This document shows, one piece after another, positions 15,494 through 46,830 of a stretch of 64,000 nt of DNA. The DNA comes from an uncultured Candidatus Saccharibacteria bacterium. GTDB taxonomy: Bacteria; Patescibacteriota; Minisyncoccia; Phycocordibacterales; UBA6065. A program made the position numbers and the translations under genes. The stretch spans positions 10,465 through 74,464 of the forward strand of contig CAZLHP010000003.1 in the NCBI GenBank assembly GCA_964559755.1. Direction: 5' to 3'. The stretch's first letter is position 1, and the number at the start of each line of letters is the position of its first letter. The notes beneath the pieces were generated by a model that saw only the letters and a list, made by a program, of their open reading frames with translations, was not told the origin of the DNA and searched no databases.

Positions 15494-16453
15494 ATGATGA
15501 AAAGTAAAATTATCCTAGCTCTCATTATTGCGTCTTTTTTTATTCTTACAGCGTTTCTTATTAAAGTGAACCAGACAAAGAAAACCCCTGAAAAGAGCGA
15601 TGTTGCTGTGATTATTGACTCTACGGTCAAAAAAGCACTTGCTGAAGACTCGGATGAGGACGGTCTCAAGGACTGGGAAGAGGGAATACGCGGAACAGAC
15701 CCTAATAAAGCAGATACCGACGGTGATGGAACTGATGACGGTGTGGAAATACAAGACGGCCGAGATCCACTCGTACTAGGGCCAAATGACAAGGAAAACA
15801 CTAATGAAACCGAAGAAAATCTCCTTCCAAAGAAAAAACCCACCGCAACAGACCTTTTTTCACGAGAAATACTAGAAAAATACCTAGAAGCAAAGAAAAA
15901 CGGGCTTGAAATAGACACCAGTCTGGAAGAACAGATCGCAAACATGGTATTAAACAAGGATTACGAAGGAGAAATAACCTTTTTTGATGAAAACAACTTA
16001 GTGACTAGCCCAAACGAAAGTCCTGATTTTATAAGGTCCTACGGAAACGCTATTGGCACCATTCTTACAACACCCCCTGTTCCAAACACGCCCAATGAGA
16101 TAGAAATTCTGAAGGACATTCAAATTAATGGCTTAACAGAGGATCATATAACAAACTCAAAGCTTCTCGTCGAAAGGTATAACTTCATGTTGTCGAAACT
16201 TGTTTTAATGACGACTCCCAAAGAAGCGTCCACCTCCCATGTCGAAATAATAAGAGGAATCCAGGTGTTGCGTGACACAGCAGAAACAATACAAACTTTC
16301 GAAAATGACCCTATAGGATCTCTCCCTAAAATAGCACGCTATGAGGAGGGTTTAGGCTTGCTGACCACAGGAACCGGGAATTTAAAATCTTACTTTATCA
16401 AAAAAAATGTATTTTTTTATTCGAACGAAAATGGATACATTTTTTTTGAATAA
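15494..16453 (+). CDS. Membrane-anchored hypothetical protein with acidic calcium-binding-like (thrombospondin type 3-like DxDxDG) repeats
   Basis: N-terminal TM; DSDEDGLKDWEEGIRGTDPNKADTDGDGTDDGVEIQDGRDP. Confidence 0.45.
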   Translation: MMKSKIILALIIASFFILTAFLIKVNQTKKTPEKSDVAVIIDSTVKKALAEDSDEDGLKDWEEGIRGTDPNKADTDGDGTDDGVEIQDGRDPLVLGPNDKENTNETEENLLPKKKPTATDLFSREILEKYLEAKKNGLEIDTSLEEQIANMVLNKDYEGEITFFDENNLVTSPNESPDFIRSYGNAIGTILTTPPVPNTPNEIEILKDIQINGLTEDHITNSKLLVERYNFMLSKLVLMTTPKEASTSHVEIIRGIQVLRDTAETIQTFENDPIGSLPKIARYEEGLGLLTTGTGNLKSYFIKKNVFFYSNENGYIFFE

Positions 16454-16496
16454 TCTGTTTTAGTGGATATTTCAGAATGTTTTATTTGTTCCCCTA

Positions 16497-18818
16497 ATGT
16501 ATAATAAAAGAACAAGTTCCCCATTATTTATGAAGAGTGTGTACATAAAAATACTCTCGGTAGCCTTGGTTCTATCATTCGTTATTCCGAATACGTTCTT
16601 TCTTTATCCTAAAAAAGTAGAAGCGACTGGCGGAGCAGAGTCGTGTGCTGCAGGATACGTAATTGCAGGTGTGAGTAAAATAGTAGCAGCTATTTCTTCA
16701 GTTTACAGCGTACCTGATGAAAGCTCGGGAAATAACGCCTCCAATTATCAACAAGAAGCCTCAGCCTATAGTGGTTCTTTTACCGAATGTATCCTAAGGC
16801 CCCTTGCACAACACATGCTTATTTCTTTAATACGTAGACTTGGAGCGAGTACAGTTGAATGGGTAAATTCTGGTTTTGAAGGGAAACCTCTCTTTGTAAC
16901 AGACTTCGAAGGACTTCTCACTGATACTGCAGATGGAGTAATTGGAAAATTTATTGAAGGATCAGAACTTGGCTGGCTTTGTAAAGATTTTTCTCAACAG
17001 ATTAGTCTCTCTCTCGCTCTCAAATACAGCAAACCTACTCGTGAGAAATTCAGATGCACCCTGAGTGATATTGCAAATAACGCAGAAAACTTTTTAGAAG
17101 ATAATGGCGGACGAGGTTGGGACAACTGGCTCACACTCACCACACAACCGCAAAACAATGTGTATGGCGCGTACTTTACCGCTCAAGGAGAACTAGCACA
17201 AAGAGTTGCAGCAAAAGTAAATGACAAAACTCAGGAGGTTCAGAGAAATGCCGGCTTCCTCAACTTTACCTACTGTGAGGAAATGGAAACAATGGACGAC
17301 GCAATCGCGCGCGTAAGTGGAGCTACTTCGCCTTATGAGGTTGGAGGCTCAAATCTTCAGACAACGGCTCAACCAATACCAGAGTGTAAAGCTGGAAAAA
17401 CAAAAACGGGTACCCCAGGATCAATCATCGGTAGCAAACTCAGTAGCGTTATGAACCAAAGTGAAATACAAAATGCCGTTGCGACTGAGATTGATCAGGT
17501 TATTGGAGCCATTCTCAATCAACTCGCAGAAAAAGCAATGGATGGAGCGCAGGGTATACTTGGCCTTAGCAAGAAAAAATCTGTACAAACAGGATCAAGC
17601 TACCTAGCAAAATATAGGCAAGAATTATACGGTGCACAGTCCGGAACAGGAAGTATTATAATTCCCGCAACCTCAGAAATAGAAAATTACCGAGTAGAAA
17701 ATTACCTAGAAGCAATAGATTTAATAAACACCGATCCTCGAACGAAAGACCTACTTGCAACAACATCGAGGATAGCAAACGAGATTACCGAGGGACAAAT
17801 CGAAGCTAATGAGGAGGTTGTAAACAACCAAAATAATCCGACAGAAAGAAACACCGCACTTCTCAGGCCATCCACACAATCAAGCTCTGGCCTAGGTAAC
17901 GCATCGAATGCGGTAAATGGAATCAACGACGGTAACGTGACTCAGTATCTACCTCCCTCAATCACAGGGGAGGAACAAAACCCTTGGTGGCAAACAAACC
18001 TAGGAAGAAATACCTCAATACGCGAAGTTCGTATTTGGCGTGTCACAAATAAACCTGTATCTCAAACACTCGAGCAAATACAAGTAATCGTCTATGACGA
18101 AAATGACAATCAAGTTTGGCAGAGTAGTCCATTGTTTCCCACTGAGTCGAGCCCAAATCCACTCGTTGTACCTGTAGGAATTACAGGAAGCAAAGTTAGA
18201 ATACAAAAATTCGGAACGCTCGACTACCAGTGTAGAGAAACATTCTCTTTTGATGATCAGTATGAATATGATAGTTGTTATAGACCTCTTGAACTGGTTG
18301 AAGTCGAAGTTATTGAGACCATCACATCTCCAACAGTAAGTGGACCAGGTGGTGGTGCTACACCGACAATTCCAACAAATCCAACCACTAACCCTCCTAC
18401 AGGTAATCAAACCGGAGGAGCAAGTGTGTCAATGCAGAGTAATTCAACTGTCACATCAAGCATTCCTCTCAGTTATACATCAAGCGTCTCGTCAGTCTCA
18501 TCACGAACAGGGATTACTGTTATAACAAGCCTACAAACATCAGGTGGGGCTCCTGTGTCATTCTCTAGTGTGTTTGGATCGCTCGATCTCTACCACGGAA
18601 GACAAAACGGGACACTTTCTCTTGTTTCAATAACTGGAACAACTGAGTCATCTATTGTTATACGAGGAATGAGTCTTGATCCAAACAATGGTTACCGAAT
18701 AAACCTAAATGGAGCAAAGAGGGTAGGAGTCAGTGGTAATTACGTGATTGAAGTGAGAGTCCTTGATAGTGCTGGAAACAATCTCACCACACAACGAATA
18801 AACTTCGTAGTACAATAA
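16497..18818 (+). CDS. Large (773 aa) surface protein with a discoidin/F5-8 type C-like carbohydrate-binding module and a Ser/Thr/Pro-rich linker
   Basis: N-terminal TM/signal; NPWWQTNLGRNTSIREVRIWRVTN...VRIQKF resembles F5/8 type C; S/T/P-rich low-complexity region; first gene of the T4SS-like cluster. Confidence 0.5.
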   Translation: MYNKRTSSPLFMKSVYIKILSVALVLSFVIPNTFFLYPKKVEATGGAESCAAGYVIAGVSKIVAAISSVYSVPDESSGNNASNYQQEASAYSGSFTECILRPLAQHMLISLIRRLGASTVEWVNSGFEGKPLFVTDFEGLLTDTADGVIGKFIEGSELGWLCKDFSQQISLSLALKYSKPTREKFRCTLSDIANNAENFLEDNGGRGWDNWLTLTTQPQNNVYGAYFTAQGELAQRVAAKVNDKTQEVQRNAGFLNFTYCEEMETMDDAIARVSGATSPYEVGGSNLQTTAQPIPECKAGKTKTGTPGSIIGSKLSSVMNQSEIQNAVATEIDQVIGAILNQLAEKAMDGAQGILGLSKKKSVQTGSSYLAKYRQELYGAQSGTGSIIIPATSEIENYRVENYLEAIDLINTDPRTKDLLATTSRIANEITEGQIEANEEVVNNQNNPTERNTALLRPSTQSSSGLGNASNAVNGINDGNVTQYLPPSITGEEQNPWWQTNLGRNTSIREVRIWRVTNKPVSQTLEQIQVIVYDENDNQVWQSSPLFPTESSPNPLVVPVGITGSKVRIQKFGTLDYQCRETFSFDDQYEYDSCYRPLELVEVEVIETITSPTVSGPGGGATPTIPTNPTTNPPTGNQTGGASVSMQSNSTVTSSIPLSYTSSVSSVSSRTGITVITSLQTSGGAPVSFSSVFGSLDLYHGRQNGTLSLVSITGTTESSIVIRGMSLDPNNGYRINLNGAKRVGVSGNYVIEVRVLDSAGNNLTTQRINFVVQ

Positions 18819-18824
18819 AAAATA

Positions 18825-19553
18825 ATGCGTCGATTTCTATCAAAAAAAATCATGGTGGCACTTGTACTCTGTAGCATGGGAGTATTTCTTTTTGTGCCCC
18901 AGACTTCATACGCAGATGTATTAGACGTAGCGAGTTTTGTAGCAAATACCCTTTACGGCTCTATAGGAAAAGCTCTTTATGAATTACTCCAGACACCTCT
19001 ATCTTGGATACTCAGTTTAGCTGGTCAAATACTTGATTTCACAATCACTCTGTCTCTATCGGCAACAGACTTGTTTAATTCACCTGCCGTCAGCATCGGA
19101 TGGAAAGCAGTGCGGGACATTTTTAACATGTTCTTTATTTTCTCGCTTATCTACATATCCATAAAAACAATACTCAAATCAGGAGGATACAAAACATCAG
19201 ACGCTCTCAAGAACGTCATTATTGGCGCCGTCCTTATAAACTTCAGCCTATACTTCACAAAGATAGTTATTGATATTTCAAATGTTTTTGCTGTATGGAT
19301 TTACAATGGAATACAGGGATTAACTCCTGGTGGGGGAGGTGGAATAAGCAAGACAATACAAGACATCTTTTCATTTGAAAAAATGTTTCAAACAAAAGAG
19401 GTTAATGATTTGTCAGCATTTGCTGCTATTTTTGCCCTCATATTCCTCTATGCTGCTTCAATAAAAATATTTCTAGAGGTGAGCTTCTTGTTTATCACTC
19501 GAACCGTTATGTTTGTTTTTTTACTTATTATGTCTACTATTGGCTTTGTTTGA
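18825..19553 (+). CDS. Polytopic membrane protein, N-terminal part of a VirB6/TrbL-like T4SS component (ends at an in-frame TGA)
   Basis: Five or more hydrophobic helices; the frame stays open through the TGA at 19551-19553 into the next ORF. Confidence 0.45.
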   Translation: MRRFLSKKIMVALVLCSMGVFLFVPQTSYADVLDVASFVANTLYGSIGKALYELLQTPLSWILSLAGQILDFTITLSLSATDLFNSPAVSIGWKAVRDIFNMFFIFSLIYISIKTILKSGGYKTSDALKNVIIGAVLINFSLYFTKIVIDISNVFAVWIYNGIQGLTPGGGGGISKTIQDIFSFEKMFQTKEVNDLSAFAAIFALIFLYAASIKIFLEVSFLFITRTVMFVFLLIMSTIGFV

Positions 19554-21089
19554 GAAGTATTTCCTAAACTAGCAAGTGATAGTAAAAGATGTAAAGAGGA
19601 TCTTATAGGACAAGCCCTCGTAGCCCCTGTTTTTTTACTCCTTCTCTACATCACTCTTCTTTTCGTTGACAACATCCAACAAACAACCTTGTTTGTAAAC
19701 AGTAAGCCGACAATGGACTCGACCACAAAATCAAGCTTCACTTTTGTTGATTTTGCTTTATTTATGATCACCTATTTCATGATAAAGAAGAGCCTAGACG
19801 TCGCAAAGGACTTTTCTGGTAAATCAGGTGACATGATCACAGGAGCAATCAAAGGGGGACTGGGTATAGCTCTTGGTGCTGTATCAGGAGGAGCCGCACT
19901 GGTCGGAAGAAGAGTTATTGGCGGAGCGGCAGCTTCTCTTGCTCAAAATGCTGCTCTTAGTAATGCGGCTGCGGGTAAGTCTGGAATCGTAAACCAGCTC
20001 GCTGGTAAGGCGATCCTAGGGGCTGCACGCGGAACAGCTTCATCAAACTTTGATATCCGATCGACGGGCATACTTAAAGGGCTCAGTGCTGAGACTAAAG
20101 CTCTGGGAGTCGACATAAGTAAAACTCAAAAAGGAGGCTTCAAACAAGCTGTTAAAGACAGAGGAGAAAAAGAGAAAAAATATGCTGAAGAATTCGGAGA
20201 TGACAAAGACGGTATCTCTCGCCGAATAGCCTATGCAGAAAGTCGAAAGGGTAGCATCCTTGCTCGGCTTGCAATAGGAAACAAAAATACGGAAAAAATG
20301 GCAGGTAAGCTCCGCAATGAAGCAGGTTTAGCATTCACAAAAGCTGAAAGTGAAGATGCGCAGAAAGATGCGCAGAAGATAAAAAATCTTATTGTTGACG
20401 CTCAGATCGTAAATGAGGTCTTAAAAAAGACAACTTCAGCGGCCACAACAGAAGACGTGAATGGGTTCATCAACCAAGCCTCGTCGGGTCTTGATAACTT
20501 CCTAGAAAATAGGAAAAAAGACATGAGAAATGACAAAATAAAGCTCATGGCAAAAGCAAATCACTTAGATCGAGAGATTGATGAACATATAGCGAAAGGA
20601 AACTACGAGCGAGCAGACGAGATTCGTGGCGATAGTGACTATGCTATTTTTTCAAACATAAGAAGAGGAGCTACCAAAGCTGAAATAGAGGATGCAGCGA
20701 ATATAGGCGAATTTACAAAAGAAGATTTCGACGCAACACTTAAGAGGTACAAGACAAGAGTTATTAAAATGCAAGAACAAGTTGCAGATGCTCAACAAAT
20801 ACTCAGCCAGGCTAAACAACTTGATACTTTGATTGGAAAGAAAACCCGCGTTAATGATGCGATAAAGAAGATTACAGATGACATTATAGGCAAAGAAAAG
20901 AAATGGAATAAGCAGGGTGAAGAAACTCAAGCAGGATCGGGCCTTAATGCAGAATTGAGTGAAAGCAAGAGGAAAGCTACCCGAGCAAAAGGTGAGTCCC
21001 GTACTCTAGGCGCAGAAGGAGGAGGTGGAAGACCTCCGAAAGAAGAAGATGAGGATGAGGAAGAAAACCCTGCTGATAAAAAAACCTAG
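19554..21089 (+). CDS. Continuation of the VirB6/TrbL-like protein: two more TM helices, a Gly/Ala-rich segment, a long coiled-coil and an acidic tail (or a separate gene from the TTG at 19689 / ATG at 19713)
   Basis: Same frame as 18825-19553 with no stop between 19554 and 21089; the architecture (TM block plus hydrophilic C-terminal extension) is typical of TrbL/VirB6. Confidence 0.4.
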   Translation, partial: EVFPKLASDSKRCKEDLIGQALVAPVFLLLLYITLLFVDNIQQTTLFVNSKPTMDSTTKSSFTFVDFALFMITYFMIKKSLDVAKDFSGKSGDMITGAIKGGLGIALGAVSGGAALVGRRVIGGAAASLAQNAALSNAAAGKSGIVNQLAGKAILGAARGTASSNFDIRSTGILKGLSAETKALGVDISKTQKGGFKQAVKDRGEKEKKYAEEFGDDKDGISRRIAYAESRKGSILARLAIGNKNTEKMAGKLRNEAGLAFTKAESEDAQKDAQKIKNLIVDAQIVNEVLKKTTSAATTEDVNGFINQASSGLDNFLENRKKDMRNDKIKLMAKANHLDREIDEHIAKGNYERADEIRGDSDYAIFSNIRRGATKAEIEDAANIGEFTKEDFDATLKRYKTRVIKMQEQVADAQQILSQAKQLDTLIGKKTRVNDAIKKITDDIIGKEKKWNKQGEETQAGSGLNAELSESKRKATRAKGESRTLGAEGGGGRPPKEEDEDEEENPADKKT

Positions 21090-21092
21090 CAT

Positions 21093-21689
21093 ATGGATAA
21101 AAATATTCAAAAAAAATATGAATCTCTGCCTGACGATGTAAGAAAGGCAATTGACTCGACTGAACTGCCTTTAAAGCTTCAGAAAATTTCTTCTGATCAA
21201 GGTCTTCATGTGGATCAAGCAGGAATTCTTGAGGAAGAAGTTGCTTCTGTCATGCTTGGAATAATCCATCCTGACGAGTTCGTAGATGCAATCGAGGAAA
21301 GGCTTGGCATATCAACGGAAAAAGCGATTGATATCACCACATCTGTCAATATGGAGATTATTATACCGATTCGAGAGTCGCTCATGACTCTTCATGAAAA
21401 AGAAAGCTCTATAGAAACCAGAGCTGAGGAAATCTTACCCTCAAAAGAAGAAGTTCTGCACGAAATTGAAAACCCGACCCAAAACGAAGCGCCTAAGAAA
21501 CCATCTACAGAACTCATGGTGGGCAGGCTCACTGGTATAGTTCAAATTCCTGGAGGGAAGAGCCAAATCCCTGTTAAAAAACCTACTCTACCCGCACAAC
21601 CAATACAGCCAATTCAAAAAACTGTTAGCCAGAGCCCGAATGACCAGAGACCTCGATCATCTGACCCTTATAGAGAACCTGTAAACTAG
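21093..21689 (+). CDS. Acidic hydrophilic hypothetical protein of the T4SS-like cluster
   Basis: ORF, translationally coupled (4 nt gap) to the upstream gene. Confidence 0.4.
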   Translation: MDKNIQKKYESLPDDVRKAIDSTELPLKLQKISSDQGLHVDQAGILEEEVASVMLGIIHPDEFVDAIEERLGISTEKAIDITTSVNMEIIIPIRESLMTLHEKESSIETRAEEILPSKEEVLHEIENPTQNEAPKKPSTELMVGRLTGIVQIPGGKSQIPVKKPTLPAQPIQPIQKTVSQSPNDQRPRSSDPYREPVN

Positions 21690-21714
21690 TTTTTAGGTGT
21701 CAGGTTTTAGAAAG
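21689..21714 (+). repeat. Copy 2 of the post-stop motif gtttttaggtgtcaggttttagaaag
   Basis: See 9751-9774. Confidence 0.5.
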
Positions 21715-21777
21715 AAGGGCTTAATGTTATATTGTATGTACTAAAAGCTAAAAGCTTTAACCTCAAACCTTTTACAT

Positions 21778-22218
21778 ATGCGATTTCAAGTTCCACAATT
21801 CATAGAAGTAGAAGATAAAATATTTGGACCTCTCACCCTTAAACAATTCCTATATCTCGCAGGAAGTGGTGGTTTAGCATTTATAGTCTATAGTTTCATT
21901 GGTAATCTTTTTATAACAGCACTGTTTGTCATTCCTATAGCAAGCACAGGAATTGCTTTAGCCTTCTACAAAGTAAACAACAAACCTTTCATTTTTGTAC
22001 TCGAGGCTGCGATTAAATACTATTTTTCTGAAAAACTCTACATCTGGAGGAAAAAAGAAAGACAAGTAATACAAGCGAGCCAAAAAGAAAACTCTGACGT
22101 ATCAAGTCTCTACATTCCAAAACTATCAGACAGCAAACTAAAAGACCTCACATGGAGTCTCGATATAAAACAAGCACAGAATCCAGCACAGGGGAAAGGA
22201 GGAAAGAATACTTTTTAA
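21778..22218 (+). CDS. PrgI/VirB3-like small membrane protein of Gram-positive-type conjugation systems
   Basis: EDKIFGPLTLKQFLYLAGSGGLAFIVYSF followed by a second TM helix; matches the PrgI-family pattern; located just upstream of VirB4. Confidence 0.5.
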   Translation: MRFQVPQFIEVEDKIFGPLTLKQFLYLAGSGGLAFIVYSFIGNLFITALFVIPIASTGIALAFYKVNNKPFIFVLEAAIKYYFSEKLYIWRKKERQVIQASQKENSDVSSLYIPKLSDSKLKDLTWSLDIKQAQNPAQGKGGKNTF

Positions 22219-22304
22219 TAAAAACCTTGGGTATTATAAACAGATTCAATTATTAAATAGTAAGGTATAATTCTTATTGTCATATACTCTATATTTAAAG
22301 CCTC

Positions 22305-22952
22305 ATGCCTTCTCAAGTAAAATCAAAAACATCCCAGGATTTTGTTCCTATAAAAGAAATCCGCCAGAGTACGGTTGTACTCAAAGATGGATCCTTGCGC
22401 GGTGTTGTTATGGCATCCTCGATAAACTTTGCCCTCAAATCAAACGAGGAACAACAGTCTGTTATGTATCAGTTTCAGAACTTTTTGAATTCACTCGACT
22501 TTTCTGTACAAATTTTTATCCAGTCACGTCGTCTCGATATTAGACCATATATAGCCCTTCTCGAAGGGCGTCTCAAAGAACAAGTAGGGGACTTGCTGAA
22601 AATACAAACGAGAGAGTATATAGAATTCATAAAAAACTTTACTGAGAACTCAAACATAATGACAAAAACCTTCTTTGTTGTTGTTCCATATACACCACCC
22701 GTACTCAATTCAAAAACAGGACCAGGATCATTTCTCAGTAAACAAAAACAATCCTCTGCTTCAAATGCAGAAATGAAGCTCGAGCAGTTCGAAGAACACC
22801 GAAGTCAGCTTGAACAGCGTATCAGCGTTGTAGAACAAGGCCTCGTGCGTTGTGGTATCAGAACAATACAACTCGGAACAGAAGAGGTCGTTGAACTTTT
22901 CTACAAAATATTCAATCCTGGAGATACCGAAAAACCAATACCGTTGGCGTAA
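22305..22952 (+). CDS. VirB4/TraE/Orf16-like ATPase, N-terminal fragment (residues 1 to about 210 of a roughly 815 aa protein)
   Basis: QDFVPIKEIRQSTVVLKDGSLRGVVMASSINFALKSNEEQ...LNSLDFSVQIFIQSRRLD follows the conserved N-terminal domain of Gram-positive VirB4 homologs; ends ...ELFYKIFNPGDTEKPIPLA* just after the homology. Confidence 0.6.
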   Translation: MPSQVKSKTSQDFVPIKEIRQSTVVLKDGSLRGVVMASSINFALKSNEEQQSVMYQFQNFLNSLDFSVQIFIQSRRLDIRPYIALLEGRLKEQVGDLLKIQTREYIEFIKNFTENSNIMTKTFFVVVPYTPPVLNSKTGPGSFLSKQKQSSASNAEMKLEQFEEHRSQLEQRISVVEQGLVRCGIRTIQLGTEEVVELFYKIFNPGDTEKPIPLA

Positions 22953-22957
22953 TTAAG

Positions 22958-22989
22958 CTTTTAGGTAATAGGTTTTAGCTTTTAGAAAA
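22958..22989 (+). repeat. Copy 3 of the post-stop motif cttttaggtaataggttttagcttttagaaaa
   Basis: See 9751-9774; lies between the VirB4 N-fragment stop and the Avd-like gene start. Confidence 0.5.
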
Positions 22990-23352
22990 ATGATTAGTTC
23001 CTACAAAGATTTGGTAGTTTGGCAAAAATCCATAGAGCTAGTTAGTGAGATCTATAAAACGACCCAACTATTTCCAAAAGAAGAGATGTTTAGCTTAACC
23101 TCTCAAATACGTCGAGCCGCTATTTCCATACCATCAAACATCGCGGAAGGGAGAGGGAGAAGCACCAGAAAAGACTTTGTACATTTTCTATACATTGCTA
23201 AAGGGTCGCTTTCTGAACTAGAAACTCAACTATTTATCAGCAAAGACCTGCAACTATTACCAAAAGAAAACTTTGATGTGCTTTATCAAAAAACAAGCGA
23301 GATTGGAAAATTATTACATGGTATTATTAATAAGCTAAAAGCTGAAAACTAA
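22990..23352 (+). CDS. Four-helix-bundle protein of the '23S rRNA intervening-sequence protein' / DGR Avd-like family
   Basis: 120 aa; YKDLVVWQKSIELVSEIYKTTQLFPKEEMFSLTSQIRRAAISIPSNIAEGRGR...GSLSELETQL matches the family consensus closely. Confidence 0.8.
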   Translation: MISSYKDLVVWQKSIELVSEIYKTTQLFPKEEMFSLTSQIRRAAISIPSNIAEGRGRSTRKDFVHFLYIAKGSLSELETQLFISKDLQLLPKENFDVLYQKTSEIGKLLHGIINKLKAEN

Positions 23353-23363
23353 AACCTCTCCCC

Positions 23364-25172
23364 ATGGGACTATTTGATTTTTTAAAACCAAAACGCCAAG
23401 GATCGCTCGTAGCACCAGTACTCCCTCAACAAATCTATGAGGCTGGTATTCTAGAGCTCAAAGACGTTATTGCGCCCTCAGCACTCAAGGTCACACCTCG
23501 CGAACTCAATCTAGGAGACAAAATTTGTCGAAGTTTTTTTGTTATATCATATCCACGCTTTCTCACAGAGAGCTGGTTTGCTCCGATCATTAACTTAGAT
23601 AAGGTTTTTAACATATCGATATTCATTCATCCTGTTGAAACAGCAAAGGTTCTCCGTCAGTTTCAGAAAAAAGTGGCTGAAGTACAGAGCCAGATAAACA
23701 TCAGAGAGCAAAAAGGACTTGTGCGTGACCCTATGCTCGATACTGCATACCAAGACCTCGAATCTCTCCGTGACCAGTTGCAACAAGCCCAAGAAAAACT
23801 TTTTGATGTAGGGCTCTACATCACCATCTACGCAGATACTGAGGCAGATCTCGACAAAACAGAGTCGGAGGTTAAATCAATACTTGAATCAAAGCTTGTC
23901 TATGTAAAACCAGCACTTTTTCAACAAGAGCAAGGTTTCCGCTCAAATATCCCCACCGCATCTGACGAGCTTGTTGTACATTCAAAACTCAACTCATCTC
24001 CACTTTCAAGTCTTTTTCCTTTTATTTCATTCGACCTTACGTCCGACAAGGGTATTCTCTATGGAATCAACAGGCACAACTCTTCACTCGTTCTGTTCGA
24101 CCGATTTTCCCTTGAAAACTACAACTCTATAACATTTGCAAAGTCTGGATCAGGTAAATCATATACAACAAAGCTGGAGATATTGAGAACCCTCATGTTT
24201 GATACAGAAGTCATCGTAATAGACCCTGAAAGGGAGTATGAGTACCTTGCCGAAGCGACAGGAGGAAAGTATTTCAACATTTCTCTCAATTCCGAGCATC
24301 ACATCAATCCATTTGAACTTCCTATCGCGCGTGAAGATGAATCTCCTGCAGACGTTTTGAGGTCAAACATTATCAATCTCGTGGGACTCTTTCGTATTAT
24401 GATGGGAGGACTCTCTCCCGAAGAGGACGCGATCATTGATCGTGCTATCACCGAGACCTACGCACTCAAAGACATCACTCCTGATTCTGATTTTGCAAAC
24501 ATAGAACCACCACTTCTTTCTGATTTTGAACTTGTCCTTGCTGGCATGGAGGGAGGGGAGTCTCTCGTGCAACGGCTCACAAAATACACCAAGGGTACCT
24601 GGTCAGGATTCATCAATCGTCCAACAAACGTAGATATCAGTGCAAAATTCATAGTGTTCTCTCTTCGCGACATGGAAGACGAGTTAAAACCAGTAGCAAT
24701 GTATATCGTGACTCACTATATATGGAATGCTGTTCGCAAAAACCTCAAAAAACGCCTCCTTGTTATCGATGAGGCTTGGTGGATGATGCGTTCTGAGGAT
24801 ACTGCATCATTCCTCCTCGGCATGGCGAAACGTGGACGTAAATACTTCCTAGGTCTTGCAACTATCACACAAGACGTTGATGACTTTATGAAATCACCTT
24901 ATGGATTGCCTATTGTTACCAACTCATCTATTCAGATACTCCTCAAACAGTCTCCTTCATCTATCGACAGGCTTCAGCAAACATTCAACCTCACCGATGA
25001 AGAAAAGTACCTTCTTCTCGAGTCAGATGTTGGTGAGGGTATCTTCTTTGTGGGACTAAAACACGTAGCAATCAAAATAATTGCGTCCTATACAGAAGAC
25101 CAAATCATCACCTCAGACCCCTCTCAGCTTTTGGCAATAAAACAAGCGAGAAAGACGGCCGAAGGACTCTAA
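23364..25172 (+). CDS. VirB4/TraE/Orf16-like ATPase, C-terminal fragment carrying the ATPase domain
   Basis: Resumes the homology where the N-fragment stops (FDFLKPKRQGS...DVIAPSALKVTPRELNLGDKICRSFFVISYP); Walker A FAKSGSGKSYTTK, Walker B LLVIDEAWWMM. Confidence 0.75.
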   Translation: MGLFDFLKPKRQGSLVAPVLPQQIYEAGILELKDVIAPSALKVTPRELNLGDKICRSFFVISYPRFLTESWFAPIINLDKVFNISIFIHPVETAKVLRQFQKKVAEVQSQINIREQKGLVRDPMLDTAYQDLESLRDQLQQAQEKLFDVGLYITIYADTEADLDKTESEVKSILESKLVYVKPALFQQEQGFRSNIPTASDELVVHSKLNSSPLSSLFPFISFDLTSDKGILYGINRHNSSLVLFDRFSLENYNSITFAKSGSGKSYTTKLEILRTLMFDTEVIVIDPEREYEYLAEATGGKYFNISLNSEHHINPFELPIAREDESPADVLRSNIINLVGLFRIMMGGLSPEEDAIIDRAITETYALKDITPDSDFANIEPPLLSDFELVLAGMEGGESLVQRLTKYTKGTWSGFINRPTNVDISAKFIVFSLRDMEDELKPVAMYIVTHYIWNAVRKNLKKRLLVIDEAWWMMRSEDTASFLLGMAKRGRKYFLGLATITQDVDDFMKSPYGLPIVTNSSIQILLKQSPSSIDRLQQTFNLTDEEKYLLLESDVGEGIFFVGLKHVAIKIIASYTEDQIITSDPSQLLAIKQARKTAEGL

Positions 25173-25211
25173 AAAAGAAAAAACGAATCAAAAACACACC
25201 TTCCACATGGT

Positions 25212-26243
25212 GTGTTTTGCGTCATGAGCTTTGTGATATACTTATGCAGTATGGTTCGCACACCACTCATATTTTTTTTATCGTTTTTATTTTTCGCTCT
25301 TTCACCGTCTCTTTATGCGCAAACCCCACCAGGAAGTGGGGGAGTGAGTATCAGTCTCGTTCCTGAAAACCCAAAACCCAACCAGACCGTTACAGTAAAA
25401 ACTCAAAGCTTTAGCACAAATCTTGATAATGCGACTTTTAAATGGTCGGTGAACGGAAAAGTCGTTGCAGAAGGTGTTGGCATGAAACAATTTGATGCGC
25501 AAACAGGAAAAAGTGGATCAATCACAAGTATTCAAGTTGAAATAAGCACTCAAAACCTGGGCGTAATCCGCGACAGCATAACTTTTCGACCAACAGAAGT
25601 AACGCTCCTGTGGGAATCCGATGGTTACCTTCCTCCTTTTTACAAAGGAAGAGCTTTCTACACACTCGGAGGATCACTCAAGGTGGTAGCAATACCTGAG
25701 TTTTTTAGTTCACAAGGAAAAAGGATGAATCCAAAGGATCTTGTATACACATGGAAAAAGAACGGCGAGGTTGTTGCAGACGCTTCGGGATACGGAAAAG
25801 ATTTCTTTATTTCAGACAAAACATCATACCTACGAGATGGTAATGATATAAGCGTAGAGGTTTCAAGTCCCCGAGAGAACATTACAGGAGGAGCATCACT
25901 AGTTGTTGAACCACAACAACTAGAAATACTCATGTATGAAAAGAGCCCTCTCTATGGAATACTTTTTAATAAAAATCTCCCAACGTCGTTCAGTCTTACC
26001 AACGAAGAAATAACTCTCTATGCGGTACCTTTCTTTTTCTCAACACAAACACAATCCTTAGGGGAACTTTCTTTTGAGTGGACAATGAACAACAACCCTA
26101 TCCGAAATGCTGCAGGTAGCAACGAGTTAACCCTACGAAAAGAAACGGGACAAGTAGGTAGCTCAGACATCGGCCTAACAATTCAACACCCTCGCAAGGT
26201 GCTTCAGGGAACAACTATGAAGACTCGCATACTTTTTCAATAA
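25212..26243 (+). CDS. Secreted hypothetical protein (signal peptide, beta-rich)
   Basis: ORF with a hydrophobic N-terminus ...FFALSPSLYAQ. Confidence 0.4.
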   Translation: MFCVMSFVIYLCSMVRTPLIFFLSFLFFALSPSLYAQTPPGSGGVSISLVPENPKPNQTVTVKTQSFSTNLDNATFKWSVNGKVVAEGVGMKQFDAQTGKSGSITSIQVEISTQNLGVIRDSITFRPTEVTLLWESDGYLPPFYKGRAFYTLGGSLKVVAIPEFFSSQGKRMNPKDLVYTWKKNGEVVADASGYGKDFFISDKTSYLRDGNDISVEVSSPRENITGGASLVVEPQQLEILMYEKSPLYGILFNKNLPTSFSLTNEEITLYAVPFFFSTQTQSLGELSFEWTMNNNPIRNAAGSNELTLRKETGQVGSSDIGLTIQHPRKVLQGTTMKTRILFQ

Positions 26244-26246
26244 CAC

Positions 26247-27395
26247 ATGAATACGTATTTTAAAAGAATTACCTTAGGAGTCTGTATTTTTTTAGGACTT
26301 TGTTTGTATACAAGTGTTTTTGCTCTTGATTACATACCCCTTACCACCATTCCAGGTGTTACTGTAAAAGGTACTGCCCTGAGGACTCCCCAAAACCTCG
26401 TCCTTGGTATATATACAGCTTCAATAGGTATTGCATCAATTCTTGCAGTCATCATGGTCATTATTGGTGGTATAAAATACACCACAATGGAATCCTTCAA
26501 TGCAAAAACTGATGCAAAAAAACAAATAACATCAGCCTTCCTAGGACTTGTACTTCTCCTTGGTTCATACCTTCTCCTGAGAACAATAAACAAAGACCTT
26601 GTTGAGTTTGATACAAAACTACCTTCATCAGGAGGACAAGGCCTTGAAAGATTAAGCGCAGAAAGAGAGGCTATTAATGTTCAAATACACGACCTAAGAA
26701 GAAGCTATGCCGCCGCAGACGCAAAAACAAAAACTGCTCGAGAAGAAGCAGCAACCCTCCTTGCTGAAAAAAACACCCTTACTGCACGTTACAACATCAT
26801 AGGCGACAAGAACTCTCCTGAAGCAATAGAGCTGGCTAGACAAATAACATCAATCACATCAAGACATGCAAGCAAAACACAAGAAGTCGCGGATCTTGAT
26901 AATGCGGCCCAGAAACTTAGACGTGATGGTTTAGCCCTTATATATACACAACAAATACGAACGGAGCTCTCTGCTGGAAATTTTGATGTGGCAAATGATA
27001 TACTTCAGAAAACTATTAATCTAGAGCAACAAAAAATACAACTGCTCAAGGACCAAAACGCCCCTCAAGAAGAAATTCAAAAAGCTGAAGTAAACAAGAC
27101 CCACACTGTTGCACAGCTATCTTCAGAAGCAGACACGGCGCGAGCACTAAACGAACTCGGTAAAAACCTTGTATCAATAGACAAAACCAAGGTTACAGAA
27201 TTACGCATAAAAATAATGGCAGATGCTCTCAGGGCGGTTTCTTCTATTAACCAGACAGATCCGACAAAAGCGGCCGCTCTACGAAAAGAGGCACTTGATA
27301 ACATCAAAAAAATCGACGATGCTTTAAATGCTAAATATAGATGCACACAATCAACAACACCGACTTTTGAAACCTTAGGAACTTGTAGTATTTAA
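26247..27395 (+). CDS. VirB2/TrbC-like pilin-type N-terminus fused to a long coiled-coil C-terminal region
   Basis: Signal/TM, then LVLGIYTASIGIASILAVIMVIIGGIKYT ... ITSAFLGLVLLLGSYLLL (two hydrophobic helices as in T4SS pilins), then about 270 aa of heptad-rich sequence. Confidence 0.4.
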   Translation: MNTYFKRITLGVCIFLGLCLYTSVFALDYIPLTTIPGVTVKGTALRTPQNLVLGIYTASIGIASILAVIMVIIGGIKYTTMESFNAKTDAKKQITSAFLGLVLLLGSYLLLRTINKDLVEFDTKLPSSGGQGLERLSAEREAINVQIHDLRRSYAAADAKTKTAREEAATLLAEKNTLTARYNIIGDKNSPEAIELARQITSITSRHASKTQEVADLDNAAQKLRRDGLALIYTQQIRTELSAGNFDVANDILQKTINLEQQKIQLLKDQNAPQEEIQKAEVNKTHTVAQLSSEADTARALNELGKNLVSIDKTKVTELRIKIMADALRAVSSINQTDPTKAAALRKEALDNIKKIDDALNAKYRCTQSTTPTFETLGTCSI

Positions 27396-27400
27396 AAACC

Positions 27401-28615
27401 ATGTCAAAAAAAATATTTATAACACTCATACTTATCGCTCTCATCTCTCTTGTTTTTGGAGTATGGTTTTTAATGATGGACAAGAATCCAAACGATACGC
27501 TTAGCCAAACTGACGAAGAAAATCTTTTTCCTTTTGGACAAGGCGGAGTAAATACACCAATAAACCCCGGCACAACAAATCAGACAACTACTACTCCTGA
27601 CTTTGATTCAGACTATATACCTCGTTTGAGAAAAATATCAGAGACACCAGTAGCTGGGGGAGTCGTATTCACCAACAAACTCGGAACGATTATTCGTTAT
27701 GTTGAACGAGCGACAGGACATATCTTTGAAACATACAGCGATTCTATTGAAGTAAAAAGAATATCAAACACCACAATACCTAAAATAGAAGAAGCGTTGT
27801 GGTCAAATCAAGGTAACCAAGTACTTTTCCGTTATTTACGCGATGACAATCAAACAATTCGTACCTTCTATGCACGAATAAGCACCACAACTGTTCCGGA
27901 TCAGGCTATCGAGGGTATATTTCTCCCAGACAACATAGCAAAGATAAGCGTTTTTGGAGACAGAATGTTCTATACATCAAAAACAGAGACAGGATCAACA
28001 GGGATCATCGCAAACATTGATGGGACAAAGAAAACAGCACTCATAAACTCTCCCTTTAACACATGGAGTCACACATGGAGTCAACCAGGATCGGTTTTGC
28101 TTTTCCCGAGCCCAAGCTACCTAGCAACAGGATTCATCTACACCCTCAACACAGCGTCAGGTGAGTATATAAAAGTGAGCCCAGGGGCTCCTGGCCTCTC
28201 AGGACTCGGCAACAAAGACGGATCTCTCATACTTATGAGCGGTAAAAAAGGGTTAGGAGTAGGTACAGCTGTTCTCAACACAAAAACAGGAGAGACTACA
28301 AACCTTTCTCTACAAACAATGACCGACAAGTGCGTCTGGAGCACGCTTGATGCCGTAGTGCTCTACTGTGCAATCTCTCAAGCATTACCGCAAAACAACT
28401 ATCCTGATGCGTGGTACCAAGGAAAGGTAACTACCAATGACTCCGTTTGGAAAATAAACACCGAAACAGGGGACACCGAAGAAATACTTAGTCCTCAAAT
28501 AGAAGCCCTCGAAGAGATTGATATGGTAAACCTTTCTCTCGACGCACAAGAAAATGTCTTACTCTTCATCAACAAAAAAGACTTAACCTTGTGGGCATAC
28601 AGCCTTCGCTTCTAA
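27401..28615 (+). CDS. Membrane-anchored/secreted hypothetical protein (beta-propeller-like)
   Basis: ORF with an N-terminal TM; last gene of the cluster. Confidence 0.4.
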   Translation: MSKKIFITLILIALISLVFGVWFLMMDKNPNDTLSQTDEENLFPFGQGGVNTPINPGTTNQTTTTPDFDSDYIPRLRKISETPVAGGVVFTNKLGTIIRYVERATGHIFETYSDSIEVKRISNTTIPKIEEALWSNQGNQVLFRYLRDDNQTIRTFYARISTTTVPDQAIEGIFLPDNIAKISVFGDRMFYTSKTETGSTGIIANIDGTKKTALINSPFNTWSHTWSQPGSVLLFPSPSYLATGFIYTLNTASGEYIKVSPGAPGLSGLGNKDGSLILMSGKKGLGVGTAVLNTKTGETTNLSLQTMTDKCVWSTLDAVVLYCAISQALPQNNYPDAWYQGKVTTNDSVWKINTETGDTEEILSPQIEALEEIDMVNLSLDAQENVLLFINKKDLTLWAYSLRF

Positions 28616-28651: not shown

Positions 28652-29419
28652 TTAGTTAATAGGAGCTAACTTCTCCTGATCTTTTTTAGATAATTCCTTT
28701 CTAACAAAAAGCTCTTGGAAGATGGTAAAGATATTACTTGTCGTCCAGTATATAGCGAGAGCACCGGCTGCGTGGTACGAAACAAAGAAAATAAAAAGAG
28801 GGAGGAAATATTTCATCTGAAGATTCATATTACGCGCCAAATCATCAGAAAAACTTGCCCCTTCTTTACGAGGTTGAGTTTTTGGAGAAGCAAGATATGC
28901 GTATATAAACTGTGTTATGCCGGCACAAAGCGCCAAAACATAACTTTTTTGTGTGACATCAAAGATACCGAGGAATATCTCATTTATAGCGGTAGGAACC
29001 TTAATAAAAGAATAGAGAATCTCTGTATTAAAAACCTCTAAACCATTGGAATAAAAAACTTTGTATAAAGCAAAAAGTATTGGGATCTGAATAAGGAGCA
29101 AGAGAATGCCAGAAAAAGGGTTTATATTCTTTGTTTTATAGTATTCCATCACCTTGAGAGCCTGCTCCTGTTTGTTTGGATATTTTTCTTTTATAGAACG
29201 AATGTCTTTATCAGAAAGCTTCATGATTATCTGAGTTCTCACAGCTTTACGCGTCAAAGGAAACAAAATAACTTTTACAAACAAAGTGAGAATTACCACA
29301 ACAATACCAACATCAGCCCACGGAAGGGCGCCTATGAGAAACACAAAACCATTATAAAGAGGGTCGAAAACAAACGTGTGATATAAATATGAAAACATAG
29401 AGTTAATACTACTGCACAT
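28652..29419 (-). CDS. yidC: Membrane protein insertase YidC/Oxa1 (short form)
   Basis: ILTLFVKVILFPLTRKAVRTQIIMKLSDKDIRSIKEKYPNKQEQALKVMEYYKTKNINPFSGILLLLIQIPILFALY; start set at the ATG at 29419. Confidence 0.8.
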   Translation of the reverse strand: MCSSINSMFSYLYHTFVFDPLYNGFVFLIGALPWADVGIVVVILTLFVKVILFPLTRKAVRTQIIMKLSDKDIRSIKEKYPNKQEQALKVMEYYKTKNINPFSGILLLLIQIPILFALYKVFYSNGLEVFNTEILYSFIKVPTAINEIFLGIFDVTQKSYVLALCAGITQFIYAYLASPKTQPRKEGASFSDDLARNMNLQMKYFLPLFIFFVSYHAAGALAIYWTTSNIFTIFQELFVRKELSKKDQEKLAPIN

Positions 29420-29448
29420 CAAACTATTCCTCAACAAAGAAACGAAAA

Positions 29449-29784
29449 CTAGAGAATTGAACCTTTTTTAAGAAGAGAAAGTAGCGTTTCTCTCATAGTA
29501 AACACGTCGAGATCTAGAGACTTCTTAACAACAAAAACAACGTCAAATGAGGGCTTAACCTCATCAAGAACCGAAAGAAGTACGTTATAACCGGCCCTGC
29601 GTATAGCATTTCTCTTTACAGCGGTCTTCACAGCTTTTGAAGAAACTGAGAAAGCAAAGCGTGTTGGCGCCGTATCTTGCCTTTTTATATACACGAGAGA
29701 AATCTCTTGTCCAAAGACGCTTTTCCCTGACGCAAATACGTTCTTAAGTAGGGAAGTAGTGAGTCTTCTATTTTTTACTAACAT
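29449..29784 (-). CDS. rnpA: Ribonuclease P protein component
   Basis: 111 aa basic protein; RNase P protein pattern; conserved rpmH-rnpA-yidC order. Confidence 0.8.
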   Translation of the reverse strand: MLVKNRRLTTSLLKNVFASGKSVFGQEISLVYIKRQDTAPTRFAFSVSSKAVKTAVKRNAIRRAGYNVLLSVLDEVKPSFDVVFVVKKSLDLDVFTMRETLLSLLKKGSIL

Positions 29785-29793
29785 AGTAGAGAA

Positions 29794-29928
29794 CTATACA
29801 CCGAGCTTCTTTCGGCCTTTGTGCATTCGTCTCTTTATAGTCTTTCGTCCTCCTTTGGTTTTAGTTCGAGAAAGGAAGCCGTGAGCACGAGCATGTTTTC
29901 TATTTTTTGGTTTATATACGATTGCCAT
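29794..29928 (-). CDS. rpmH: 50S ribosomal protein L34 (absent from the ORF track because it is under 60 aa)
   Basis: The reverse complement translates to MAIVYKPKNRKHARAHGFLSRTKTKGGRKTIKRRMHKGRKKLGV*. Confidence 0.85.
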   Translation of the reverse strand: MAIVYKPKNRKHARAHGFLSRTKTKGGRKTIKRRMHKGRKKLGV

Positions 29929-30079
29929 AAATGAATGGTTTATTTTAAAACAAAATCTTTCTGAACAAAAATATTCTTATTAACAGATTGTTCACATATT
30001 ATTAACATATTTACTCATTTTCCACAAGTATTAAAATTCCATTAAGCCTTTATACTTAGTCTCAACCAAACACACAACT

Positions 30080-31426
30080 ATGTCTGAAACAAAAAAAATT
30101 TGGGATGGTGTACTCGGTGAAATAGAACTCCAAGTTTCAAAAGCAAACTTCAACACATGGTTCAGGGATACTTTTATATCAAAAATAGACGATGGCGTGG
30201 TTCACGTTGCAGTGCCAAACGCTTTTGTACGAGACTGGCTCCTCAATAAATATCATAAATGCATCCTCAAGAGCTTGAGAGATAGCGGTAAAGACATCAG
30301 ATCTGTTGAATATAATATTTCTAAGTCGGATAGTAAAAAACAAGAAACCGAAATTATTCGAAAGGTTTCTCCTACAAACGAGCTTCCTCTTCAGGATTTT
30401 TATATAAACAAAGAAGACAATCTCAACCCTCGTTATACCTTTGAATCCTTTATTGTAGGGCCTTTCAACGAACTTGCTCACGCGGCATCACAAGCAGTGC
30501 TTAAAAAACCAGGTATTTCCTACAATCCGCTCTTCATTTATGGCGACACAGGAAGAGGAAAGACTCACCTCATCCAGTCAGTAGGGAACTATCTCAAAAA
30601 TAACGGCTCTAATTCAAAGGTTATTTATGTGACTTCAGAAAAATTTGTTGTTGATTACGTCAACGCTGTTCAAGGTGGAAAAATGAACCTTTTTAAAGAA
30701 AAGTATAGAAAATATGATGTGTTCATCATGGACGATACGCAATTTCTTTCAGGAAAAGAGAAATGCCAGGAAGAACTCTTTCACCTTTTCAATACTTTTT
30801 ACGACAATAATAAACAAATTATCTTTTCCTCTGATAGGCACCCGAACTATATAGATAATCTTGAGGATCGTCTCAAATCTCGTTTTGCTGCGGGTATGAT
30901 TGTTGATATTTCTGCACCAGATCATGAATCTCGTATGGCAATACTCAAAACAAAAGCTAAAGTTAACAATGTTTTTGTTGATGATCAGATTTTAGACTTC
31001 ATTGCTTCAAATATAGAAGGGAATATCCGTGAACTTGAGGGTATTTTCAACTCTATTGTGATGCAAACACAACTAAAACAGAGAACATTGAACCTTATTG
31101 AGGTAAAAAACCTTATAAAAGACTCCTCAAAACCAAAAAAGTCGCTCTCAGTGAAAGAAATAGTCAAAATAGTCTCTGATTATTACAACGTTGAAGAGAA
31201 TTTTATCTATGAAAAGACAAGAAAGAAGGAGATTGTTAAACCTAGGCAGATTATTATGTATCTTTTAAGAGAAGATATGAATATTTCATACCCTTCGATA
31301 GGAGAGAAGCTTGGTGGCAGAGACCACACGACTGTTATACACTCATGTGAGAAGATAAAAGAAGACATAAAGACAAACAACCTTCTTTCTCAGGAGTTAA
31401 GCCATATCCGCTCCCTCATGTTTTAA
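30080..31426 (+). CDS. dnaA: Chromosomal replication initiator DnaA
   Basis: N-terminal domain, AAA+ Walker A GDTGRGKTHL, and the C-terminal DNA-binding signature. Confidence 0.95.
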   Translation: MSETKKIWDGVLGEIELQVSKANFNTWFRDTFISKIDDGVVHVAVPNAFVRDWLLNKYHKCILKSLRDSGKDIRSVEYNISKSDSKKQETEIIRKVSPTNELPLQDFYINKEDNLNPRYTFESFIVGPFNELAHAASQAVLKKPGISYNPLFIYGDTGRGKTHLIQSVGNYLKNNGSNSKVIYVTSEKFVVDYVNAVQGGKMNLFKEKYRKYDVFIMDDTQFLSGKEKCQEELFHLFNTFYDNNKQIIFSSDRHPNYIDNLEDRLKSRFAAGMIVDISAPDHESRMAILKTKAKVNNVFVDDQILDFIASNIEGNIRELEGIFNSIVMQTQLKQRTLNLIEVKNLIKDSSKPKKSLSVKEIVKIVSDYYNVEENFIYEKTRKKEIVKPRQIIMYLLREDMNISYPSIGEKLGGRDHTTVIHSCEKIKEDIKTNNLLSQELSHIRSLMF

Positions 31427-31656
31427 GTGGATAACCTTGGGGATAAGTATGTGGATTGCTGTGAATTAACCTGGGTATGAAATGTTGAGTACTGACCCTT
31501 TATTCACAGAGTAAAAAATCATCCACTTTATCAACGTTTTTTATGCACAGTGAGGTAGGGTATAAAACAATCGAAAAGTGCTTAAAAATAAGGCTTTGAG
31601 AGCTATCCCCACAAGTCACAGGTATTATAATAATAATAGACTTATATAATAAGATT
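31427..31656 (+). promoter_or_regulatory. Putative oriC: DnaA-box cluster plus an AT-rich unwinding element between dnaA and dnaN
   Basis: Boxes agtggataa (revcomp TTATCCACT), ttattcaca, ttatgcaca, tatccccaca, tgtggattg; AT-rich ttataataataatagacttatataataa next to dnaN; a TTTTCCACA box also upstream of dnaA at about 30019. Confidence 0.6.
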
Positions 31657-46238: not shown

Positions 46239-46255
46239 AAAATATGTAAAAAATT

Positions 46256-46360: not shown

Positions 46361-46363
46361 GTA

Positions 46364-46828: not shown

Positions 46829-46830
46829 AC

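Follow-up and report, generated by a model that had tools for sequence, protein, structure and literature searches.

A Paceibacteria type IV secretion locus beside the replication origin, probably a member of the Patescibacteria clade of VirB4 systems

A monophyletic clade of Patescibacteria VirB4 proteins, nested within the MPF_FATA group of type IV secretion systems (T4SSs), was described by Quinonero-Coronel et al. 2025 (PMC12102498) and recorded there in 2417 of 3035 genomes. According to that survey, TrsD homologues lie beside virB4 and are accompanied by PrgI/VirB3 and VirB6 components and by VirB2-like pilins of the PF18895 family, relaxases are almost absent, a type IV coupling protein (T4CP) gene is rarely near, and in Paceibacteria the locus lies beside dnaA, dnaN, rnpA and ksgA. 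Here, a 13-kb gene cluster was analysed in a stretch of 64,000 nucleotides from an uncultured bacterium deposited as Candidatus Saccharibacteria (GenBank assembly GCA_964559755.1, contig CAZLHP010000003.1, positions 10,465 to 74,464 of the forward strand), hereafter the window, at its full length. The cluster is in all likelihood a vertically inherited, chromosomal T4SS of the Patescibacteria clade in a Paceibacteria (Parcubacteria) genome, located beside the origin of replication (oriC), derived from monoderm (MPF_FATA) conjugation machinery and presumably serving in host contact and exchange. The locus is thus an ordinary member of a system already published, and its finding is a rediscovery. 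The items that are possibly new are peripheral, namely a four-helix-bundle cassette, a clade-typical pilin ectodomain and several conserved but unassigned partner proteins.

In Southlakia, a T4SS and a pilin array are essential for growth on the host, their function being unknown (PMC12857230; PMC11665869, citing Wang 2023), and effector delivery and nucleic-acid uptake are given in PMC11665869 as current speculations. Tubular structures that may be T4SS pili have been described at the parasite-host interface (bioRxiv 10.64898/2026.06.21.733656). The cluster in the window combines a match to a VirB4 model, an adjacent TrsD homologue, a PrgI/VirB3 protein, a PF18895 pilin, the lack of a relaxase and T4CP within the window and a position near dnaA; component set, missing relaxase and T4CP, and dnaA proximity are common to it and the clade of PMC12102498, and nothing essential differs from the description in the relevant sections of that survey. 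Three details are not discussed in those sections: the locus has a single pilin with a helical domain of ~250 aa, whereas arrays of short pilins are typical of Saccharimonadia and Microgenomatia, and it includes the conserved, unassigned accessory genes A, B, D, I and K and the four-helix-bundle cassette.

The eleven genes, here designated A to K, occupy positions 15494-28615, all on the + strand and with intergenic gaps of 3-88 nt in the survey of open reading frames (ORFs). A first-pass annotation of the same DNA had proposed a co-directional T4SS-like cluster of 13 kb with Gram-positive-type components; every ORF that it listed was found in place on the + strand, and the family scans matched the components to Gram-positive-type (MPF_FATA) T4SS families, namely PrgI, TrsD and CD1110-type VirB4, together with pilin-like and VirB4 models from integrative and conjugative elements (ICEs) of Mycoplasma. 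The central ATPase is encoded by gene H (23364-25172, 602 aa), which matched the CD1110-family VirB4 model NF045971 with 372.5 bits (cutoff 325) over profile positions 185-733 of 752. H was also matched by the VirB4 C-terminal domain of PDB 4AG5 (E=6.8e-41), by P-loop_TraG (1.7e-26) and, below the equivalog cutoff, by the Mbov_0397 VirB4 model (5.9e-76).

Gene F (22305-22952, 215 aa) is predicted to encode a TrsD-like protein, corresponding to a detached VirB4 N-terminal domain. In NCBIfam it was matched by VirB4_plasma (Mbov_0397 VirB4) over positions 100-233 (2.5e-12, below the equivalog cutoff) and by TrsD NF041427 (E=3.3e-8, under the curated cutoff); it further aligned with positions 4-180 of TIGR00929 and positions 2-118 of the CD1110 model, and a precomputed TraC-like match (PF26593) is on record. 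Comparison of the F profile with PDB sequences gave no match. As F covers profile positions ~2-180 and H positions 185-733, the two proteins tile one full-length VirB4. The possibility that F duplicates the N-terminal domain of H itself was ruled out, as neither BLASTP nor hhalign detected similarity between F and the N-terminal 250 aa of H; F corresponds to the segment upstream of that domain.

Relatives of the locus were collected by scanning one genome per species with H, which gave 358 relatives, and the best 80 loci (L001-L080) were analysed. All of them belong to metagenome-assembled genomes of Paceibacteria/Parcubacteria, and their H proteins are 76-90% identical to that of the window. 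F and H are separate, adjacent ORFs in each of the 78 relatives in which both were found, in varied relative frames, with a spacing of usually 1-10 nt and median lengths of 213 aa (F) and 606 aa (H). An exhaustive phmmer search with F returned 2289 cluster representatives, nearly all of them stand-alone proteins. One protein of the representative library (P0090, 797 aa) is a natural fusion, in which residues 2-214 correspond to F (47% identity) and residues 225-793 to H (55%). Hence, the two-gene VirB4 is the native state in this clade, and a rare fused form exists. The first-pass annotation had called the VirB4 ATPase split; the two genes are indeed there, but, since F and H are separate in all 78 relatives, the split is not damage, and the gene lying between them had been overlooked. 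VirB3-VirB4 fusions are not reported, and TrsD-VirB4 fusions not discussed, in the relevant sections of PMC12102498.

The remaining recognisable components are a VirB3-like and a VirB2-like protein. Gene E (21778-22218, 146 aa) encodes a PrgI/VirB3-like two-transmembrane (TM) hairpin protein, as had been proposed, with a match to PF12666 PrgI well above the cutoff (E=1.7e-11; 44.9 bits, cutoff 27) and two hydrophobic segments. Gene J (26247-27395) is the sole VirB2-like ORF in the window. Its product matched T4SS_pilin PF18895 with 27.2 bits (cutoff 26.6) and, weakly and under the equivalog cutoff, the Mbov_0395 pilin-like model (2e-4). Hydropathy analysis placed segments at residues 8-26, 58-76 and 93-111; a signal peptide (residues 1-26), followed by a conserved Y-x-PLTTIPG motif, precedes two hydrophobic helices, the arrangement of VirB2-type pilins, and this hairpin is kept in 21 homologues. 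In an AlphaFold2 (AF2) model with a mean predicted local distance difference test score (pLDDT) of 75.6, the helices of the hairpin span residues 48-80 and 84-114 and are followed by a flexible linker and by an all-helical C-terminal domain of ~250 aa (residues 132-364), mostly at pLDDT 85-95, with a Cys pair at its end. Comparison of the model with PDB structures by Foldseek retrieved generic helical proteins only, none of them significant (best E=0.05). A match to the coiled coil of IpaB, at rank 48 of that search, was judged not meaningful.

Structure prediction for this product had been put forward as a check by the first-pass annotation, which described it as an unusual fusion of a pilin N-terminus with a coiled coil. 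The pilin part and the helical extension stood, but "unusual" did not. All 21 database homologues of J have a common architecture (347-539 aa), and in syntenic relatives the median size of J is 306 aa, so that the extension is typical of the clade.

The chromosomal context of the cluster is strongly conserved. Upstream lie uvrD and ksgA and downstream yidC (-), rnpA (-), dnaA (+) and dnaN (+), the latter four at 28652-32757, all assigned by Pfam matches; dnaA is 1.5 kb downstream of the cluster. As these flanking genes coincide with a minimum of the cumulative GC skew at ~30-32 kb of the window, the cluster abuts the replication origin. The synteny comparison, likewise suggested beforehand, found the gene order uvrD-ksgA-[A B C D E F H I J K]-yidC-rnpA-dnaA-dnaN in 80 species-level genomes, which places the cluster far beyond chance. 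Full flanks were available for 41 loci. All of these have E, F, H, I and K; C is found in 40 of them, J in 34, B in 33, A in 24, D in 19 and the yidC-rnpA-dnaA-dnaN flank in 39-40. H had a median identity of 81%, F of 63%, DnaA of 62% and DnaN of 48% (window regions 23364-25172 and 30080-31426 compared with L001-L080), the contrast of H with DnaA and DnaN being biased upward by the selection of loci for similarity to H.

No VirD4/T4CP or relaxase was found in the 64-kb window, of which every ORF of at least 200 aa and most of those of 110-200 aa were scanned. Their absence from the cluster had been noted at the outset, and the complete conjugative module that would make this an ordinary ICE is thus lacking from the window as well. 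The GC content is uniform (0.39-0.42), no flanking direct repeats, att sites or adjacent tRNA gene were found at the cluster, and the Rfam scan of the window returned tRNAs only. A scan for promoters and terminators was uninformative, promoter-like sites being fewer than in shuffled sequences. The rest of the window consists of housekeeping genes and type IV pilus genes. Because the locus is embedded in housekeeping synteny beside dnaA, it does not qualify as an ordinary ICE, and a role in host interaction without conjugation is the reasonable reading. A non-conjugative conclusion was likewise reached in PMC12102498 for the whole phylum. The earlier suggestion of a pilus for attachment, DNA uptake or host interaction instead of conjugation is therefore supported as an interpretation by the housekeeping synteny and the lack of T4CP, relaxase and att sites in the window.

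It was also considered whether the locus could be an integrated ICE, or a decaying relic of one that is without its former relaxase and T4CP and is undergoing pseudogenisation. The derivation of the components from conjugation machinery, an in-frame stop codon in the virB6-like gene, a foreign cassette between trsD and virB4 and a tyrosine recombinase gene at 4372-5295 would all fit such an origin. This explanation is nevertheless highly improbable. The recombinase gene lies 10 kb from the cluster amid housekeeping genes, the two-gene VirB4 is universal in the clade, the base composition and the lack of flanking tRNA genes and repeats do not mark an insertion, and the stop codon is missing in near-identical strains and sits in a damage-like cluster of changes. 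The locus occupies one housekeeping context in 80 species with VirB4 76-90% identical, which indicates strong purifying selection and not decay.

The stop codon concerns gene C (18825-21089, 754 codons), which appears in the window as two ORFs, 18825-19553 and 19689-21089, in the same frame and parted by a single TGA at 19551-19553. In 55 relatives C is a single ORF with a median length of 773 aa, and it is intact (737-753 aa) on contigs of strains 92-98% identical to the window. Comparison with the two closest of these contigs (L089 and L090) disclosed five changes unique to the window within 57 nt, at 19536, 19550, 19551, 19580 and 19592; each is a G>T or C>A change, and elsewhere the gene is virtually identical. 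Their consequences are the replacement of a near-invariant Pro by Thr, of Gly by the stop, of Glu by Asp and of a near-invariant Trp by Cys; strains 98% identical keep the intact codons, and near-identical strains read GGA at the position of the TGA. Given the clustering of G>T and C>A changes and the intact ORF in the 92-98% identical strains, the TGA probably arose as an artefact of sequencing or assembly; at most, it would be a lesion of very recent date. Recoding of UGA (code 4 or 25) was ruled out: two other ORFs terminate in TGA, code 11 leaves the other genes intact and the near-identical strains have GGA. In a tally of stop codons covering all 61 window ORFs of at least 110 aa, TGA was scarce, ending 2 of 60 ORFs with the internal codon of C excluded, and TAA and TAG ended 46 and 12, respectively.

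The first-pass annotation had named C a VirB6/TrbL-like polytopic membrane protein. Hydropathy analysis divides C into a signal segment, ~5-6 TM helices and a hydrophilic tail of ~470 aa, so in topology it would be an extended VirB6/TrbL-like protein, and the profile of its orthologues aligned by hhalign with TrsL of pSK41 over a conserved SP..WW..L motif (E=6e-4, probability 28%). Precomputed matches of C orthologues to TrbL, TrbL_3 and DUF8208 are weak or faint. On these grounds, a VirB6-like nature of C is plausible but weak, the topology, the TrsL alignment and the family matches of a few orthologues, given below, speaking for the earlier claim and the lack of a match for the window protein itself against it.

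Two MPF_FATA-related systems are instructive at this point. In pSK41/pGO1 of Staphylococcus (TrsB-TrsL), the order of a CagC-family pilin-like protein, the VirB3-like TrsC, TrsD and the VirB4 TrsE, a TrbL-family VirB6 (TrsL) and a VirB4 split into a TrsD-like and an ATPase gene are all reminiscent of the present locus. However, that system is carried by a plasmid and includes relaxases, the VirD4-like TrsK, the CHAP hydrolase TrsG and the topoisomerase TrsI, none of which occurs in the window cluster, and the sequence similarity is remote, the hhalign alignment of F with pSK41 TrsD being marginal (E=0.012). The T4SSs of Mycoplasma sit on mobile ICEs that mediate DNA transfer. Like the window locus, they occur in wall-reduced or monoderm hosts with small genomes, and their proteins are matched by F and H (Mbov_0397) and weakly by J (Mbov_0395); in contrast to them, the window locus is fixed in the chromosome, and the scores are all under the equivalog cutoffs.

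Several points weigh against the assignment of the region as a functional T4SS of this clade for host contact. The window C protein itself had no family match in the Pfam and NCBIfam scans, and as few as 4 of 41 C orthologues matched PF04610 TrbL (best E=2.6e-4); moreover, were the TGA real, this copy would be without an intact VirB6. The family scans of the cluster revealed nothing akin to VirB8 or VirB1, and A, B, D, I and K yielded no assignable fold in searches of families, structure models, PDB and PHROGs. The polymerisation of J into a filament is presumed, and a VirB2-type pilus might have difficulty in accommodating an extension of 250 aa on every subunit for steric reasons. A VirD4 may be encoded elsewhere in the genome, and PMC12102498 indeed reports T4CP homologues in most Patescibacteria genomes, far from virB4. 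Finally, the proposed function is extrapolated, by analogy, from the genetics of Saccharimonadia to another class.

From the component set, which is directly visible in the cluster, we infer the following mechanism. A VirB4 hexamer, together with TrsD and VirB3, would dock on a VirB6 translocon, and VirB4 would spend ATP on extracting the Sec-inserted pilin J from the membrane. J may then be built into a filament or conduit at the surface that crosses the thin monoderm envelope. B, which would have a conserved base and a variable lectin- or Ig-like tip, could span the envelope or provide adhesion together with A, I and K. Such an apparatus would mediate host contact and macromolecule exchange for epibiotic growth, and not conjugation.

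The direction of such an exchange was considered in both senses. In one, the T4SS would work in uptake, like ComB of Helicobacter pylori or the archaeal Ced system, bringing host DNA or RNA (nucleotides) to a cell unable to synthesise them, with the pilin or filament as the conduit. ComB is a diderm system with VirB7, VirB9 and VirB10 homologues and no known requirement for a VirB2-type pilus. It resembles the window locus in being a T4SS without a coupling protein or relaxase that is put to a non-conjugative use, as outlined in PMC11665869, which also proposes nucleic-acid import on the ground that ComEC is dispensable in Southlakia and the T4SS essential; feeding on host RNA and a monophyletic VirB4 are reported in bioRxiv 10.64898/2026.06.21.733656. 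H weakly matched models of the DNA-import ATPases CedB (4e-8) and CedD (1.5e-3), but these matches cover the generic P-loop region only and are far under the cutoffs. The presence of comM and uvrD just upstream of the cluster could be read in the same sense, yet this neighbourhood is conserved housekeeping synteny and carries no functional evidence. The family scans picked out no cluster protein with a DNA-binding or nuclease function, and the direction of transport is not indicated by the sequence. Import is accordingly held to be a possible but doubtful role.

In the opposite sense, effectors or toxins that permeabilise or manipulate the host would be exported into it, recruited without a T4CP, as in Bordetella Ptl and Brucella VirB, or by a distant VirD4 homologue. 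Precedents for T4CP-less secretion are cited in PMC12102498, delivery of effectors is speculated on in PMC11665869, the T4CP homologues that are common elsewhere in Patescibacteria genomes (PMC12102498) might act in recruitment, and the operon encodes the Sec-dependent A, B, I and K. On the other hand, the family scans detected no effector-like, toxin or hydrolase domain in any cluster protein, and the t4cp gene of Southlakia is not essential according to PMC12102498, in contrast to its T4SS genes. Export as the role of the locus was judged unlikely. The preferred reading is a Patescibacteria-clade T4SS for host contact and exchange. Its core (C, E, F, H and J) is surrounded by the products of five lineage-specific genes, namely the envelope proteins A, B, I and K and the soluble D.

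Gene A (15494-16453, 319 aa) is predicted to encode a protein, either anchored in the membrane or secreted, with Ca-binding repeats of the bacterial TSP3 type (TSP3_bac PF18884, 29.4 bits, cutoff 25) and one N-terminal hydrophobic segment (residues 5-23); it is an accessory gene, moderately conserved in the lineage. The earlier description of A as a membrane protein with Ca-binding repeats was borne out by the scan. Gene B (16497-18818) encodes an envelope protein of 773 aa that is anchored at its N-terminus; its N-terminal domain is conserved in the clade, and its C-terminal part varies. The N-terminal domain (~residues 100-360) appeared as a motif block in the orthologue alignments, and its AF2 model, at pLDDT 49, was unusable for the fold. 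B had been described as a discoidin-domain surface protein. The ORF was confirmed, but the discoidin/galactose-binding match (PF22633, residues 460-568) reached 24.3 bits and is under the cutoff of 27.8, and the domain is missing from 31 of 33 orthologues; an F5/8-type-C domain occurs in the other two, one of which reaches 7.9e-8, and P0022 has a precomputed PF22633 match.

Gene D (21093-21689, 198 aa) is predicted to encode a soluble protein; no family match was found in Pfam, NCBIfam or PHROGs, and no hydrophobic segment was detected. Gene I (25212-26243, 343 aa), always located 3' of virB4, would encode a secreted or anchored, beta-rich protein with an N-terminal hydrophobic segment and weak Ig/PKD-like signals, its BiPBP_C and PKD_3 matches being all sub-threshold. 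Gene K (27401-28615, 404 aa), the last of the cluster, encodes an N-terminally anchored protein with one TM segment and probably a beta-propeller-like ectodomain, a weak DUF5050 match being the one family signal. Neither I nor K had a usable match among PDB sequences, and PHROGs added nothing for the unassigned proteins of the cluster. Among the three proteins that had been called secreted, the N-terminal hydrophobic segment of I and K agrees with this and its lack in D does not.

The gene overlooked between F and H belongs to an inserted passenger cassette, here designated G (22955-23357, + strand). It consists of a 120-aa four-helix-bundle gene (22990-23352) bracketed by inverted repeats at 22955-22985 and ~23330-23357, and it fills the F-H spacer, which normally measures 1-10 nt; a cassette is present at that spacer in 5 of 79 genomes. 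The protein matched PF05635 (4.4e-43) and TIGR02436 (1e-41), annotated as "23S rRNA IVS protein" and bAvd-like, and the Avd models scored well below the four-helix-bundle models. A diversity-generating retroelement (Avd) was considered and ruled out, since there is no reverse transcriptase among the annotated ORFs of the window and no pair of template and variable repeats (TR/VR) near the cluster. The G family is very large, with proteins 55-63% identical across phyla, including homologues from Flavobacteriia.

In relatives, G-type genes occupy at least four different spacers (F-H, E-F, D-E and B-C) and invariably point the same way as the operon. Across the window and 1.33 Mb of related loci, 13 of 13 G-type copies detected fall inside the T4SS operon. 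G-type copies were located at L012 9592-9990; L023 2996-3379; L034 445-822 and 1542-1934; L036 9551-9721; L024 8536-8904; L062 8425-8790; L071 8418-8825; L074 8553-8801; L070 8461-8748; L035 2601-2990; L038 5711-6148; L093 4001-4366; and L096 4001-4360. Two further Paceibacteria homologues, chosen only by their likeness to G, are also in the T4SS operon, and a Bacteroidota-like homologue lies between recJ and a cytidylyltransferase gene.

The inverted repeats are built of short, periodic, TAG-rich units, whose sequence varies among copies with the complementarity kept. The ungapped inverted-repeat score of the window cassette was above all 394 controls, and in 7 of 11 cassettes (6 of the 10 related ones) it exceeded all ~340-390 positional controls; the RNAduplex energy of the cassette flanks, a looser statistic, was no different from random controls. 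With its PF05635 ORF bracketed by inverted repeats, the cassette resembles a 23S rRNA intervening sequence (IVS) transplanted into an mRNA operon, from which it differs in lying between two protein-coding genes, outside a 23S rRNA gene; its mobility and its processing by RNase III are putative. If the stem were an RNase III site, the T4SS mRNA would be cut between trsD and virB4 with expression kept. Tentatively, G may be a small, mobile, operon-riding cassette that strongly prefers the T4SS operon of Paceibacteria, or very highly transcribed operons in general, including the rRNA operons of other phyla.

A solo copy of the cassette-arm motif, CTAAAAGCTAAAAGCT, was noticed at 21727-21771 in the D-E spacer, a cassette site in other genomes. 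Across 31 nt, this copy and the arm at 22955-22985 are 84% complementary; as a pair, they would bracket E and F. The solo copy may be the footprint of an earlier insertion.

Elsewhere in the window, a ComM-like gene associated with competence (8193-9737) and a gene for an M23/LysM peptidase (9835-10887, - strand), the latter a candidate VirB1 analogue, are situated upstream of uvrD, and the type IV pilus genes pilB and pilMNO are at 40181-41854 and 59390-61560. The region 46176-49527 contains dispersed direct repeats (107 nt in two copies, 38 nt in three copies with spacings of 885 and 817 nt, and 63 nt and 51 nt in two copies each) interleaved with small ORFs of 113-137 aa, and may be a repeated small-gene array or a set of mobile units. 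Two tandem units of 104 nt (37168-37398), 99% identical and 127 nt apart from start to start, sit at the 3' end of ruvC (37369-37845, - strand) and just downstream of it.

Few machines have been shown to be indispensable to epibiotic life in this very large, uncultivated radiation, and the T4SS of Patescibacteria is among them. The window adds no new kind of system, yet it provides a clean Paceibacteria example, which highlights a VirB4 conserved above DnaA, an obligate two-gene VirB4 and a single pilin with a large helical ectodomain, and which offers five conserved envelope or soluble partners as targets for structural work.

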